From NCBI GenBank assembly GCA_050745085.1, contig JBOGJB010000140.1:1-35615 (forward strand): 35,615 nt of DNA, written 5' to 3'. The DNA is from Vicinamibacterales bacterium (GTDB taxonomy: Bacteria > Acidobacteriota > Vicinamibacteria > Vicinamibacterales > 2-12-FULL-66-21). Position numbers and translations under genes: made by a program. Every line of letters begins with the position of its first letter. Position 1 is the stretch's first letter. A model generated the notes under the pieces. It saw only the letters and a program-made list of their open reading frames with translations, searched no databases and had not been told where the DNA came from. Of the stretch, positions 363-7,245 are shown piece by piece.

Positions 363-815
363 ATGTCATTGAACAACTTGCGCCCGCCGCAGGGCGCGAA
401 GCACTCGAAGAAACGGGTCGGCCGCGGGCAGGGGTCGGGCAGCGGCAAAACGGCCGGCCGCGGGCACAAGGGGGCGAAGTCGCGCTCCGGGTTCAAGCAC
501 AAGCGCGGGTTCGAGGGCGGGCAGATGCCGCTCCACCGCCGCGTGCCGAAGCGCGGGTTCCACAACCCCTTCCGCGTGGAGTACGCCGTCGTCAACCTCG
601 ACGCGATCGCCGAGCGGTTCGACGCCGGTGCGGAGATCACGCCCGAGCTCTTGCGCGAGCGCGGGCTCGTCGGCGCGGCGGGCCGCGTGAAAGTCAAAGT
701 GCTGGCGCGCGGTGACATCGGCAAGGCGCTCACGGTGCGCGCCCACAAATTCAGCGGCAAGGCGGCGGAGAAGATCGCCGCGGCCGGGGGGAAGGCTGAG
801 GTACTTACGCCGTAG
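363..815 (+). CDS. rplO: 50S ribosomal protein L15
   Basis: 150-aa ORF with the Gly/Arg/Lys-rich N-terminus [20 protein letters not shown] typical of L15. It starts 1 nt after the rpmD stop. Confidence 0.95.
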
Positions 816-978
816 TCCTTGGTCCTTGGTCCGTGGTCCTTAGTCAGGTGCACGCCGCACCGAACGAAGGACTAAGGACTAAGGACTAAGGACTGAGGAC
901 TAAGGACTAAGGACTAAGGACTAAGGACTAAGGACTAAGGACTAAGGACTAAGGACTAAGGACTAAGGACTAAGGACT
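813..978 (+). repeat. Heptamer-repeat hairpin A: left arm 813-845 (TAGTCCT/TGGTCCT, ~4.7 units), loop 846-868, right arm 869-978 (GGACTAA x15 plus a partial unit)
   Basis: Counted directly. Fifteen contiguous 7-nt units occupy 869-973, all GGACTAA except GGACTGA at 890-896, followed by a partial GGACT. The left arm is the degenerate reverse complement and begins at the rplO TAG stop. The loop contains a small GGTGC/GCACC hairpin. Confidence 0.95.
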
Positions 979-992
979 GGCAGAGTCACTGA

Positions 993-2384
993 ATGCTGGA
1001 CAGTCTAAAGAACATCTTCGCCGTTTCGGAACTGCGCAAGCGCGTGCTGTTCACGCTGTTCCTGCTCGGGATCTATCGCGCGGGGAACTTCATCCCGACG
1101 CCAGGGGTGAACCCGCAGGCGCTCGCCGAGCTGGCGCGGCAGCTCCAGAACACGATGTTCGGCCTGTACGACATGTTCACCGGCGGGAACCTGTCGCGGG
1201 TCACGATCTTCGCGCTGGGCATCATGCCCTACATCAGCGCGTCGATCATCCTGCAGCTCCTCACCGTCGTCTGGCCGTACCTCGAGCGGCTCTCGAAGGA
1301 AGGGGAGCTGGGCCGGCGGAAGATCACCCAGTACACGCGCTACGGGACGATCTTTCTGAGCGTGGTCCAGGCGTTGAGCATCGCGATCTTCCTCGAGAAT
1401 CAGACCAACATCGTGGGGGGGCTCCCGCTCATCGCGAACCCCGGCTGGACCTTCCGGCTGATGACGGTGCTGACGCTCACGACGGGGACGACGTTCATCA
1501 TGTGGCTCGGCGAGCAGATCACCGAGCGCGGCATCGGCAACGGGATGTCCCTCATCATCTTCGCGGGCATCGTCGCCGGCCTGCCGTCGGCGGTCAAAGC
1601 CACGTTCGACCAGCTGTCGATGGGGCAGATCAGCCTGCTGACCCTCGCGCTCCTCACCGTGCTCATGGTGGCGGTGATGGCGGCGATCGTGCTGGTCGAG
1701 CGCGGGCACCGGCGCGTGACCGTGCAGTATGCCAAACGCGTCGTGGGCCGGCGCATGTACGGCGGGTCGAGCACGCACATCCCGCTGAAGGTGAACACGG
1801 GCGGCGTCATCCCGGTCATCTTCGCCTCGTCGATCCTGGCGTTTCCGGCGACGCTCGCGCCGATGTTCGCGGCCGACGGCTGGTTCCGCGTGAACGTGAT
1901 CGATCAGCTGGGGATGAATACGCCGCTCTACATGCTGCTGTATGTCGCCGGCATCATCGGCTTCGCGTATTTCTACACGGCCATCGTGTTCAACCCCGAC
2001 GACGTCGCGGAGAACATGCGGAAGTACGGCGGGTTCATCCCGGGCATCCGCCCGGGCAAGCGCACGGCCGAGCACATCGACGGGATCCTGAACCGGATCA
2101 CCCTCGTCGGCGCGGTGTACCTCGCGGCCGTCGCGGTCCTGCCGCAGCTCCTGATCTCGGGGGTCAAGCTCGATCAGATTCCGGGGATCGGCGACTGGCT
2201 GTCGACGAACTTGCCGCAGTTCGTGACGCAGGGGTTCAACGTGCAATTCTTCTTCGGGGGCACTTCCACGCTGATTGTGGTCGGCGTGGCGATGGATACG
2301 GTGCAGCAGATCGAGTCGCAGCTCATCATGCGTCACTACGACGGGTTCATGAAGCGGACGCGGATTCGAGGACGCCGAGGCTAG
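993..2384 (+). CDS. secY: Preprotein translocase subunit SecY
   Basis: 463-aa polytopic membrane ORF with SecY-like segments (LGIMPYISASIILQLL, FIMWLGEQITERGIGNG, GGVIPVIFASSIL) in the canonical position after rplO. Confidence 0.96.
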   Translation: MLDSLKNIFAVSELRKRVLFTLFLLGIYRAGNFIPTPGVNPQALAELARQLQNTMFGLYDMFTGGNLSRVTIFALGIMPYISASIILQLLTVVWPYLERLSKEGELGRRKITQYTRYGTIFLSVVQALSIAIFLENQTNIVGGLPLIANPGWTFRLMTVLTLTTGTTFIMWLGEQITERGIGNGMSLIIFAGIVAGLPSAVKATFDQLSMGQISLLTLALLTVLMVAVMAAIVLVERGHRRVTVQYAKRVVGRRMYGGSSTHIPLKVNTGGVIPVIFASSILAFPATLAPMFAADGWFRVNVIDQLGMNTPLYMLLYVAGIIGFAYFYTAIVFNPDDVAENMRKYGGFIPGIRPGKRTAEHIDGILNRITLVGAVYLAAVAVLPQLLISGVKLDQIPGIGDWLSTNLPQFVTQGFNVQFFFGGTSTLIVVGVAMDTVQQIESQLIMRHYDGFMKRTRIRGRRG

Positions 2385-2385
2385 C

Positions 2386-3054
2386 TTGCCCGTCAACCTC
2401 ATCGTGCTGGGCCCTCCGGGGGCCGGCAAGGGTACGCAGGCGGAGCGTTTCGCGCGGGTCCGAGGCATCCCGAAGATCTCGACGGGGGACATCCTCCGTG
2501 AGGCGGTCTCCGCCGGGACCGAGCTGGGGTGCATCGCGAAGGCGACGATGGACGCCGGCAAGCTGGTCGGCGACGACCTGATGATCGGCATTGTGCGCGA
2601 GCGGCTGTCGCGCCCGGACACGGCCCACGGCTTCGTGCTCGACGGCTTTCCGCGGACCGTCAGGCAGGCCGAGGTGCTCGACGGGATGATGAACGGCCGC
2701 GGACCGCTCGTCGTGCTCGACATCGTCGTGCCGCCGGAGGAGCTGGTGCGGCGCCTGGCGCAGCGCCGCGTCTGCAGCAACTGCGGCTGGACGACGGCCG
2801 CTGACGGCGAGACCGTCTGCTCGAAGTGCGGTGGCGCGATCGTCCAGCGGAGCGACGACAGCACCGAGGTCGTGCGCAAGCGGCTGCAGGTGTACGAGCG
2901 CGACACGAAGCCGCTCGTCGAGTACTACCGATCGCGGGGAAAGCTGCAGGTCATCGACGGCAACCGGCCCCCGGCGGAGGTCTCGGCGGCGGTGGATTCA
3001 GCGGTCGCGCAGGCGGCGAAGCCGGAGACCGAGGCGCGGGGCCAGAGGACATGA
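2386..3054 (+). CDS. adk: Adenylate kinase (zinc-lid type)
   Basis: 222-aa ORF with a TTG start 1 nt after the secY stop. It has the P-loop GPPGAGKGTQ and a Cys4 lid, CSNCG...CSKCGG. Confidence 0.95.
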   Translation: MPVNLIVLGPPGAGKGTQAERFARVRGIPKISTGDILREAVSAGTELGCIAKATMDAGKLVGDDLMIGIVRERLSRPDTAHGFVLDGFPRTVRQAEVLDGMMNGRGPLVVLDIVVPPEELVRRLAQRRVCSNCGWTTAADGETVCSKCGGAIVQRSDDSTEVVRKRLQVYERDTKPLVEYYRSRGKLQVIDGNRPPAEVSAAVDSAVAQAAKPETEARGQRT

Positions 3055-5929: not shown

Positions 5930-5932
5930 AGA

Positions 5933-6033
5933 AATGCCGAATGCCGAACGCCGAAAGGGTCTGCACTCGCGACCGTCGGCGACTGTCGACGAGCGTAGAC
6001 GTTTTCGGCATTCGGTATTCGGCATTCGGCATT
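5933..6033 (+). repeat. Heptamer-repeat hairpin C (AATGCCG family): left arm 5933-5960, core, right arm 6006-6033
   Basis: The left arm reads AATGCCG AATGCCG AACGCCG AAAGGGT. The right arm reads CGGCATT CGGTATT CGGCATT CGGCATT. The core shares GCGAC...GTCGAC strings with the core of element B. The element starts 4 nt after the rpsD TAG. Confidence 0.92.
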
Positions 6034-6063
6034 GACGGAAGACAAACGAAAGGAATCACACCC

Positions 6064-7044
6064 ATGCTGTGGAAAGGTTTCCAGCGGCCGAAGCGGCTGG
6101 AGTTCGAGCGTGAGACGCTTACCGACAGGTTCGGCCGGTTCTACGCGCAGCCGTTTGAGCGCGGGTTCGGAACGACGATCGGGAACGCCCTGCGCCGCGT
6201 GCTGCTGTCCTCGGTCGAGGGAGCGGCGGTCACAGCGGTCAAGATCGAGGGGGTCCTCCACGAGTTCTCCCCGATCCCAGGCGTCGTCGAGGACGCGACC
6301 GACATCATCCTCAACCTGAAGCAGATCCCGCTGAAAATGCACGGCGATCACACGAAGACGCTGTACCTCAAAGCGGAGAAGCCGGGCGTCGTGCGCGCGC
6401 GGGACATCGAGACCGACGCCGACGTCGAGATCCTCGAGCCGGACGCGCACATCGCGACCGTGTCAGAGCACGGCAAGCTGCAGATGGAGATGCGCGTCAA
6501 GCGCGGGCGCGGCTACGTCGCAGCCGACAAGAACTTCGACGAGGACCTCGGCATCGGCTGGATTCCGATCGACTCGGTGCACTCGCCGATCAAGAAGGTC
6601 AACTACCTCGTCGAGGCGGCGCGCCTCGGACAGACCACCGACTACGACAAGCTGACCGTGGACGTCTGGACCAACGGCGCCGTGACGCCGCGTGACGCCG
6701 TGTCGCTCGCGGCCAAGCTGATCCGCGATCACCTGACGATCTTCGTCAACCTCGAGGAAGCGCTCGAGTCGGCGCCGGAGGCGGCCTCCGACACGCCCCG
6801 CGCGGCGCTCAACGAGAACCTCGACAAGAGCGTCGAAGAGCTGGAGCTTTCCGTCCGGTCCTACAACTGCCTCAAGAACGCGAACATCCGGACGATCCGC
6901 GAGCTGGTGCAGAAGACCGAAGGGGAGATGCTCAAGACGAAGAACTTCGGCCGCAAGTCACTGAACGAGATTAAGGAGATCCTGTCGACCATGGGTCTCA
7001 GCCTCGGGATGAGATTGGATCAACCGACTCACGCTCAGGAGTAA
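6064..7044 (+). CDS. rpoA: DNA-directed RNA polymerase subunit alpha
   Basis: ATG at 6064 is preceded by AAAGGAA. The sequence begins [17 protein letters not shown], has an N-terminal assembly domain, and has a C-terminal domain with [23 protein letters not shown] (the HhH of the alpha-CTD). The upstream part of the 409-aa track ORF runs through repeat C and is rejected. Confidence 0.95.
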
Positions 7045-7050
7045 ACGGTA

Positions 7051-7245
7051 AGTTCTTAGTGCTTGGTTCTTAGTGCTTAGTGTGATTTCCCTCGCGACTG
7101 ACTTCGCTGTTGTGGGTCTCGTGTCTTTGCTTGTTTCTTCTGCGTGCGCTGGCGGTGAACGCGACGCGTGGACAGCGAAGATCAATCACCGAAGACGCTG
7201 GCGAGCGAGGTCAGACTAAGCACTAAGAACTAAGCACTAAGAACT
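7051..7245 (+). repeat. Heptamer-repeat hairpin D: 31-bp stem (7051-7081 with 7215-7245) enclosing a 133-nt lower-GC core
   Basis: The left arm is AGTTCTT AGTGCTT GGTTCTT AGTGCTT AGT. The right arm is ACT AAGCACT AAGAACT AAGCACT AAGAACT. I checked it base by base and found 30 Watson-Crick pairs plus one G-U (7065 with 7231). The core has internal pairings CTTCGCTGT/ACAGCGAAG and CCTCGC/GCGAGG. Confidence 0.93.

Follow-up and report, generated by a model that had tools for sequence, protein, structure and literature searches.

Tandem-heptamer hairpins in the ribosomal-protein operon spacers of Acidobacteriota

Tandem repeats of 7-nucleotide (nt) units have been known in bacteria since 1990, and in heterocystous cyanobacteria the short tandemly repeated repetitive (STRR) sequences have the consensus units CCCCAGT, TTGGTCA and CAACAGT. 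These cyanobacterial STRRs, together with the 'highly variable but structured' nif intergenic regions, are reportedly the oldest precedent for the elements described here, which are hairpins with tandem-heptamer arms in the ribosomal-protein operon spacers of a Vicinamibacterales bacterium (Acidobacteriota; GenBank assembly GCA_050745085.1, contig JBOGJB010000140.1, positions 1 to 35,615). This whole 35,615-nt stretch is called the window below. Mycobacterial interspersed repetitive units (MIRU), which Supply and colleagues reportedly described in 1997, are said to be direct repeats of 46-100 bp in operon spacers, where they adjoin the stop and start codons of the neighbouring genes.

In many bacteria no class of long simple-sequence repeat is commoner than that with heptanucleotide units, for which an origin by polymerase slippage was proposed (Mrazek et al., 2007, as summarized in PMC4679880 and PMC4692102). 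Xanthomonas carries 186 GGGAATC arrays with a mode of four units, 70-75 of them in inverted pairs (Rehm et al., 2015; PMC4692102), which lie on average 28 nt from the end of the neighbouring open reading frame (ORF) and vary between close species (PMC4692102). TAACTGA arrays occur in Beggiatoaceae, Cyanobacteria and Bacteroidetes; in Beggiatoaceae they lie 1 nt upstream of start codons, also in ribosomal-protein operons (MacGregor, 2015; PMC4679880), and almost all are direct repeats, with one inverted case among 170 (PMC4679880). Acidobacteria encode a distinct group of Y1 transposases ('TIRYT') flanked by repeated terminal inverted repeats (PMC3733652). Our literature search found no description of the present repeats in Acidobacteria. 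The initial annotation of the window had named STRR heptamers as the nearest analogy, and these are indeed the nearest known kind. The architecture is not without precedent, given the inverted pairs of about four units just downstream of Xanthomonas ORFs (PMC4692102) and the Beggiatoaceae arrays in ribosomal-protein operons (PMC4679880).

Tandem-heptamer hairpins of the window

The window contains five hairpins whose arms are tandem heptamers, together with a single unpaired array; its heptamer units are of four types (Table 1). Tandem Repeats Finder (TRF) and an inverted-repeat search recovered all six at the coordinates given in the initial annotation, with the operon hairpins placed as described there relative to the rplO TAG, infA TAA, rpsD TAG and rpoA TAA. 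The alternative pairing registers that had been expected of the window arrays are also real according to the inverted-repeat search. Stop codons or ATG in all frames, which the same annotation ascribed to the arms, are present in one arm and not in the other. Our own detector found eight period-7 arrays in the window, none of periods 4-6, 8 or 10-12 and two of period 9, and 20 Markov shuffles of the window yielded approximately no period-7 arrays.

A further GC-rich palindrome lies between the two arms, and fold prediction therefore makes each window element one continuous hairpin. None of 200 shuffles was as stable as the native sequence for any of the five elements. The predicted fold of Element 1 was -89.3 kcal/mol (z -9.6) and that of Element 4 was -107.9 kcal/mol (z -8.3). 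Element 2, an unbranched single hairpin, reached -77.1 kcal/mol on the sense strand compared to -69.5 on the antisense strand (z -7.9), Element 3 reached -68.4 compared to -66.1 kcal/mol (z -7.5), and Element 5 reached -49.9 kcal/mol on the plus strand and -48.3 on the minus strand (z -8.8). No U-tract was found behind any element and a terminator scan had no match at these sites. In agreement with the initial annotation, the heptamer hairpins are not canonical intrinsic terminators. It also holds that they are not repetitive extragenic palindromic (REP) sequences, enterobacterial repetitive intergenic consensus (ERIC) sequences or miniature inverted-repeat transposable elements (MITEs) with unique-sequence arms, and no Rfam family matched at the gathering score in the window and five related loci; the matches by E-value were chance similarities to microRNA precursors only, far below the gathering scores.

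The three 4-unit hairpins (Elements 2, 3 and 4) were base-for-base identical in GCA_050745005.1, an independent assembly of a 99.83% identical strain (99.8% over 8.2 kb of adjacent sequence, L201), which weighs against the earlier proviso that the arrays could be a product of short reads. An assembly artefact is unlikely because of this identity and because the same kind of arrays occurs on megabase-scale contigs of relatives. The 3' arm of Element 1 has 16 units in the window compared to nine in the sibling (window 816-992 vs L202:1710-1837), the sibling array having one unit fewer before a GAGGACT marker unit and six fewer after it. This difference is either a true slippage polymorphism, which would fit the earlier description of the repeats as slippage-prone, or an assembly collapse. 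Copy number is uncertain for the 16-unit array only.

The plus strand of the first 8 kb of the window encodes rpmD, rplO, secY, adk, map, infA, rpmJ, rpsM, rpsK, rpsD, rpoA and rplQ, and RpoA (90% identity to a metagenome-assembled genome) assigns the host to the Vicinamibacterales, Acidobacteriota. Both AATGCCG hairpins of this operon (4103-4210 and 5934-6035) hold an ATG-started ORF that spans the hairpin (MPNAE...GIRH*, 35 and 33 codons). The first, which begins in a TAATG overlap with the infA stop codon, stops 14 nt short of the rpmJ GTG, and the second stops 28 nt short of the rpoA ATG. No other element of the window has an ATG-started ORF of this kind. Such a bridging ORF follows almost automatically from the AATGCCG unit and is not general in other families. 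A general bridging mini-ORF was rejected: of 59 elements, 3 had an ATG-started spanning frame on the sense strand and 8 on the antisense strand, and the counts were 20 and 19 when any start codon was allowed.

Outside the operon, the minus-strand ORF 16771-18483 has its final 10 codons (STKDEVRRLK*) in the 3' arm of Element 5; heptamer arrays can therefore reach into, or create, C-terminal protein tails. The lone array occupies a spacer, about 30 nt long, that follows the stop codon of a TPR gene (TAG, 19366-19368), and neither TRF nor the inverted-repeat search of the window found an inverted partner for it. The following minus-strand gene (MPKVVLGAM..., a signal peptide) probably has its ATG in the last unit, and the array seems to supply this start codon. 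A 15-nt tandem duplication (19300-19330, minus strand) lies directly inside the region coding for the signal peptide. The degenerate repeats of period about 7 in the other three spacers that separate ribosomal-protein genes (4339-4408, 4784-4813 and 5264-5299) may be decayed arrays.

Table 1. Positions and parts of the heptamer-repeat features in the window
Feature	Position	Strand	Location	Arms, core and flanks	Method
Element 1	813..978	+	rplO-secY spacer	5' arm (GTCCTTG)x4.4, 815-845, overlapping rplO TAG 813-815; inner short GC hairpin, 846-866; 3' arm (AAGGACT)x16, 867-978, 112 nt; secY ATG at 993	TRF + inverted-repeat search
Element 2	4102..4208	+	infA-rpmJ spacer	5' arm (AATGCCG)x4.3, 4102-4131; GC-rich palindromic core, 4132-4178; 3' arm (TTCGGCA)x4.3, 4179-4208; infA TAA 4101-4103 overlapped; rpmJ GTG 4225	TRF + inverted-repeat search
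Element 3	5933..6033	+	rpsD-rpoA spacer	5' arm (AATGCCG)x3.3, 5933-5955; palindromic core, 5956-6003; 3' arm (TTCGGCA)x4.3, 6004-6033; rpsD TAG 5927-5929 (3 nt before element); rpoA ATG 6064	TRF + inverted-repeat search
Element 4	7051..7245	+	rpoA-rplQ spacer	5' arm alternating AGTTCTT/AGTGCTT, 7051-7082; 3' arm alternating ACTAAGC/ACTAAGA, 7215-7245; complementarity inward to 7109 and 7187, i.e. 59-nt arms; rpoA TAA 7042-7044 (6 nt before element); rplQ ATG 7259	TRF + inverted-repeat search
Element 5	16731..16808	.	between convergent genes: ROK-type gene, + strand, TAG 16728-16730; ORF 16771-18483, - strand	arms AAGTACG/AAGCTCG, 16735-16758 and 16781-16803; complementarity gives 36-nt arms and a 6-nt loop	
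Lone array	19333..19362	-		(AATGCCG)x4.3 on the sense (minus) strand; reads (TTCGGCA)x4.3 on +	
Degenerate direct repeat	4342..4376	+	rpmJ-rpsM spacer	period ~7 (GGATTGT GGATTGC GGATGT GGATTCG); no inverted partner	TRF rows 4347-4371 and 4342-4376
Similar G/T/A-rich repeat, possibly decayed	4784..4813		rpsM-rpsK spacer	no inverted partner	by reading the sequence
Similar G/T/A-rich repeat, possibly decayed	5264..5299		rpsK-rpsD spacer	no inverted partner	by reading the sequence

Heptamer hairpins in relatives and soil metagenomes

The sample of relatives comprised the 80 best rpoA loci. Almost all of them carry Acidobacteriota titles (one was labelled Woeseiaceae), and they cover Vicinamibacteria-like and Terriglobia lineages. 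These loci contained 255 arrays of period 7 compared to 1, 16, 36, 23 and 2 arrays of periods 5, 6, 8, 9 and 10, with up to 19 arrays in 17 kb of ribosomal-protein genes in a single locus (L001). The autocorrelation of pooled operon spacers peaked at lags of 7, 14 and 21, and genes showed period 3 only. A scan of the relatives for inverted tandem arrays, of the kind that the initial annotation had suggested, gave 74 tandem-armed hairpins in the 80 loci, all of them intergenic. Heptamer hairpins are widespread among the Vicinamibacteria-like and Terriglobia loci sampled from the Acidobacteriota, and are strictly intergenic. Before the removal of duplicates, 69 of 78 hairpins had period 7 and seven had period 8. 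Hairpins of 8-nt units (GATTGCAG, AATTGGGT) stood beside 7-nt ones (L004:2822-2937 and 7757-7883; also L003, L062 and L068), and a hairpin of 9-nt units (L005:8985-9080) was found in a genome that also uses 7-nt units. Period 7 is therefore a strong preference and not a rule, and the period may be family- or genome-specific.

The hairpins had a narrow geometry. Median arm length was 4.1 units (interquartile range 3.6-4.5), the GC content of arms was 50% compared to 61% for the loci, and 54 of 71 elements were predicted to form a single unbranched stem-loop (medians 86 nt and -46 kcal/mol). The 5' arm began a median of 3 nt past the upstream stop codon and the 3' arm stopped a median of 11 nt before the next start codon, with 3' arms ending 1-25 nt upstream of starts. 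Lone arrays in ribosomal-protein spacers ended about 13 nt before starts and were A-rich on the sense strand (53 vs 18). Element 5 of the window and two hairpins of relatives lay between convergent genes.

The RNA of the sense strand was predicted to fold better than that of the antisense strand (mean ddG -4.0 kcal/mol; 41 vs 22 elements, P = 6e-4), with 179 G:U pairs in whole elements on the sense strand compared to 107 on the antisense strand. Whole spacers showed the same asymmetry. Spacers with arrays were more structured (z -4.9) than those without (z -2.2), the latter being structured too.

Cognate arms were 0.89 Watson-Crick paired compared to 0.57 for non-cognate arms, and where the unit of a given spacer differed between genomes each 5' arm still matched its own 3' arm. 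The arms stay complementary while the unit sequence turns over fast. One column of the unit is free, pairing in 57% of cases compared to 96% for the core columns, which places a stem mismatch about every 7 bp. A unit was shared by 45% of hairpin pairs within a locus compared to 9% between loci (permutation P < 0.0005), and units form genome-specific families. Copies in L018 and in L055 had inner motifs in common; the cores of the two AATGCCG copies of the window were unrelated.

Among 263 units of relatives, CTGA was found in 36% (6% expected), AGCT in 30% (3% expected), GCTGA in 20% (1% expected) and ACTGA in 13%. The units of the window itself lack CTGA, the nearest being ACTAAGN. The common phase C-K-A-A-K-N-N that had been read from the window units described 7% of these 263 units compared to 5% expected, and does not hold. 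Only the CTAAGNN units are plausibly related, being one transition from the widespread CTGAGNN type. In relatives with rpoA 92-93% identical, elements had been gained, lost or swapped for ordinary GC-rich hairpins, and some had been replaced by another family with a remnant arm left behind, including a nested replacement at one site in L064.

The rpsD-rpoA spacer of Vicinamibacterales relatives also contains, just upstream of rpoA, a candidate conserved structured RNA (L001:7880-8003; L002-L015, L017 and L019; alignment A1). One of its stems has compensatory changes in 8 of 14 pairs, and a putative covarying pseudoknot was found by eye, CAGACCTGC pairing with GCAGGTCTG. The candidate had no Rfam match in L001, L004 and L018. 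It is absent from L016 and from the window, where the AATGCCG hairpin occupies this place (5930-6063).

A metagenome scan for (AATGCCG)3 matched at least 120 contigs, from which 80 loci (L081-L160, GC content 0.48-0.72) were read back. Among the matches listed, period-7 arrays numbered 145 compared to 2, 10, 14, 8 and 1 for periods 5, 6, 8, 9 and 10, and arrays were mostly lone: a strict test, which looked within 400 nt for a partner array of perfect units, left 69 of 80 AATGCCG arrays unpaired, and a looser test gave 14 hairpins in total, some of them not AATGCCG-armed. The gene context of these 80 arrays, from crude gene calls among the matches listed, included every orientation and no clear rule. 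The metagenome loci were also examined for larger elements, in which the partner arrays would lie far apart or enclose a transposase, and none were found. The AATGCCG hairpins of unrelated soil-metagenome contigs share GTC at the 5' end and GAC at the 3' end (L084, L124, L136 and L148; alignment A2), the 3' GAC flank yielding a TGA at the end of the element. GTC preceded 12 of 78 AATGCCG arrays of L081-L160 among the matches listed, compared to about 1.5% if the 64 trinucleotides were equally likely, and GTC...GAC may be a conserved terminus of the element.

Several simple positional rules were rejected. All four operon hairpins of the window lie at boundaries between ribosomal-protein and other genes (rplO/secY, infA/rpmJ, rpsD/rpoA and rpoA/rplQ). 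As marks of gene-class boundaries, however, hairpins failed across the 80 loci, arrays being present in 22% of boundary spacers compared to 26% of spacers between two ribosomal-protein genes. A role of the element as donor of the upstream stop codon was not borne out (TAG 37%, TAA 48% and TGA 15% with arrays vs 41%, 41% and 18% without), and nor was replacement of the Shine-Dalgarno sequence, which was present upstream of 52% of starts with arrays and 53% of those without. The polarity of T-rich 5' arms and A-rich 3' arms (47 vs 9) was discarded as evidence of oriented insertion, as it is unchanged by reverse complementation and shared by related units, and the cases are not independent.

Origin and possible role of the elements

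The best reading overall, to which we give slightly less than an even chance, is that these are STRR-like repeats that grew by slippage, had their arms copied by template switching, and are tolerated and perhaps used as self-folding intercistronic stem-loops. Such an element consists of two inverted arrays of about four units around a GC-rich palindromic core, and is predicted to form one long imperfect hairpin that fills the spacer from just after the stop to just before the start. Replication slippage of 7-nt units would create and lengthen the arrays where the hairpin has its base, and a change in one arm would be copied to the other by palindrome-templated strand switching (known in Escherichia coli genetics as quasipalindrome correction), keeping the arms symmetric. 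Copies would spread within the genome. The elements could persist in essential operons since the transcript would fold on itself: the stem would bring the stop codon and the next start within about 14 nt of each other and keep the untranslated spacer double-stranded, so that translation coupling and protection from Rho and RNase would be preserved. By analogy with REP sequences and bacterial interspersed mosaic elements (BIMEs), the element would plausibly act as an intercistronic stem-loop (a stabiliser or processing site) and not as a dedicated switch.

A number of observations weigh against this reading. A role at the RNA level rests on a modest strand asymmetry, for which mutational skew in a highly transcribed leading-strand operon could be an alternative cause. 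In the arms alone, G:U pairs exceeded A:C mismatches by 53 to 38 in the full set, which is not significant; an arm excess of G:U was dropped as proof of RNA-level selection, the 35 vs 14 of one subset having given way to this result, and only the whole-element fold asymmetry holds. Pure slippage fails to explain the recurrence of one unit at several spacers of one genome, the excess of CTGA and AGCT (36% and 30% vs 6% and 3%), the clustering of arms at about four units, and the GTC...GAC ends common to AATGCCG hairpins of unrelated metagenomes.

Two alternatives are each unlikely. Under the first, the element would be a dedicated cis-regulatory RNA whose units are iterated sites for a trans-acting factor that controls downstream initiation, such as ribosomal protein S1, a cold-shock-domain protein, a CsrA-like protein or the ribosome itself. 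The 5' arm would be an anti-sequence melted by the terminating upstream ribosome, enforcing translational coupling (the MacGregor model with a hairpin added). The position of the 3' arms shortly before start codons is consistent with this, as are the A-rich sense strand and the location of the lone ribosomal-spacer arrays, the conserved 6-nt core of the unit with its one free column, the better folding of the sense strand, the 16 Shine-Dalgarno-like AAGGA motifs within the (AAGGACT)x16 of the window, and the CTGA core common with the Beggiatoaceae TAACTGA repeats that lie 1 nt upstream of starts, including those of ribosomal-protein operons. Against it, units are very diverse within and between genomes, and neither AATGCCG nor AGTACGA of the window has a CTGA core. 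Shine-Dalgarno sequences are equally frequent with and without arrays, there is no enrichment at boundaries between ribosomal and non-ribosomal genes, and elements also occur between convergent genes. The elements are dispensable, moreover, because they come and go at essential genes between close relatives.

The second alternative, to which we likewise assign a low probability, is a non-autonomous mobile element (MITE, REPIN or foldback-like) with heptamer arrays as terminal inverted repeats. It would insert preferentially just downstream of stop codons and would depend for its movement on a transposase acting in trans, for instance one of the Y1 'TIRYT' enzymes specific to Acidobacteria, whose genes are flanked by repeated terminal inverted repeats (PMC3733652). 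This agrees with the genome-specific unit families, the inner motifs common to copies in L018 and L055, the GTC...GAC ends in unrelated contigs with their excess of GTC before AATGCCG arrays, and the nested family-for-family replacement in L064. No target-site duplication is visible at the flanks, however, the cores of the two AATGCCG copies of the window are unrelated, arm copy numbers vary, and most of the metagenome AATGCCG arrays read back are without a perfect-unit partner within 400 nt. A motif scan of the 1.9 Mb of fetched loci, which is a weak test, found no ORF similar to IS200 or to the REP-associated tyrosine transposases (RAYTs).

It is quite improbable that CTGA-core heptamer arrays constitute a cis-code across Acidobacteriota, Beggiatoaceae, Cyanobacteria and Bacteroidetes, read by a conserved trans-acting factor or by the ribosome; in Acidobacteriota the downstream array would be paired with an anti-array and unmasked by termination at the stop codon upstream. 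If true, this cross-phylum cis-code would be a dedicated modular device coupling translation within operons.

We give little credence to a pure mutational by-product, in which heptamer repeats expand wherever non-coding DNA allows and have neither RNA relevance nor dispersal. Heptamers being the commonest long simple-sequence repeats, with slippage as the explanation (Mrazek et al., 2007, as reported in PMC4679880 and PMC4692102), would suit it, and so would the apparently polymorphic copy number and the (AATGCCG)n arrays, mostly lone, in at least 120 metagenome contigs that span a wide GC range in the loci read. It does not account for matched inverted arms far above chance, the tight stop-to-start geometry, the better folding of the sense strand, the genome-specific families or the narrow distribution of arm lengths.

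Terminators or attenuators without a U-tract ('I-shaped') are very unlikely. Long stable stems directly after stop codons would be in keeping with them, and Element 5 and the two hairpins of relatives lie between convergent genes, where a bidirectional terminator is expected; the terminator scan, however, found none, and four elements lie inside an essential co-transcribed operon, with up to 19 arrays in L001, where termination would be lethal or very costly. Finally, that the arrays are artefacts of short-read assembly is almost certainly wrong, for while the copy number of the 112-nt array differs between two assemblies and several metagenome arrays are located at contig ends, three 4-unit hairpins are the same in an independent assembly, arms of about 30 nt are shorter than a read, and the same kind of arrays is present on contigs of 1-4 Mb.

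In practice, such arrays fragment or distort assemblies made from short reads, and they lengthen operon spacers in a soil phylum that is abundant. Acidobacteriota offer a large natural data set for heptamer repeats, since orthologous spacers of their essential operons carry hundreds of hairpins that are independent and differ in sequence. Any explanation is constrained by a preference for about four units that is not driven by G-quadruplexes, by one free unit column with a mismatch every 7 bp, by genome-specific unit families, many with a CTGA or AGCT core, and by a hairpin whose ends nearly coincide with the stop codon and the start codon that bound the spacer.

Comparison with known repeat systems

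The elements resemble several described repeats in part. As in REP, BIME and REPIN sequences (PMC3116915, PMC3733652), they are extragenic, mostly after gene ends in co-directional or convergent spacers, and form inverted dimers that fold into larger hairpins, with genome-specific families that by analogy probably act as RNA stem-loops. A REP, however, is a conserved imperfect palindrome of unique sequence, 20-40 nt long, that bears a GTAG or CGTC tag and is linked to a RAYT gene, whereas the arms here are tandem heptamers in stems of up to 30-50 bp and carry no tag, apart from the GTC flank in part of the AATGCCG family. Unlike MITEs, they show no visible target-site duplication, and cores of the same unit are unrelated in the window and partly related in L018 and L055. 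With MIRU they share the position in operon spacers abutting stop and start codons, and the two AATGCCG hairpins of the window carry a small spacer-spanning ORF; MIRU are direct repeats, however, and here the repeats are hairpins in which a bridging ORF is not general.

The heptamer systems are closer. TAACTGA repeats are likewise heptamer arrays that end a few nt upstream of starts, including those of ribosomal-protein operons, with stops in all frames in the forward orientation and a CTGA core, which 36% of the Acidobacteriota units contain. They are direct repeats, whereas a complementary 5' arm is usual here, and the window units are neither TAACTGA nor a close variant of it. The Xanthomonas GGGAATC arrays are similar in being intergenic, about four units long, near the end of the upstream ORF and in inverted pairs able to form stem-loops; in both cases length and sequence differ between close species, and the Xanthomonas repeats are transcribed, as the present ones probably are. 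Xanthomonas has a single G-rich family with G-quadruplex potential, whereas the present elements have many units, are relatively AT-rich and contain no G-tracts. The shared preference for about four units is not explicable by G-quadruplexes, because the Acidobacteriota units cannot form them.

The cyanobacterial STRRs match most closely, with tandem 7-nt units of several types per genome, intergenic and also inside operons, that are variable between close relatives yet structured. The present repeats differ in phylum and in units unrelated to the three cyanobacterial consensus sequences, save for an ACTG/CTGA-like core in many relatives. Inverted pairing is occasional in STRRs, whereas two inverted arrays of about four units around a GC-rich palindromic core are the rule here. 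The elements belong to the known group of bacterial heptamer (STRR-like) repeats, to which Acidobacteriota are an added case.

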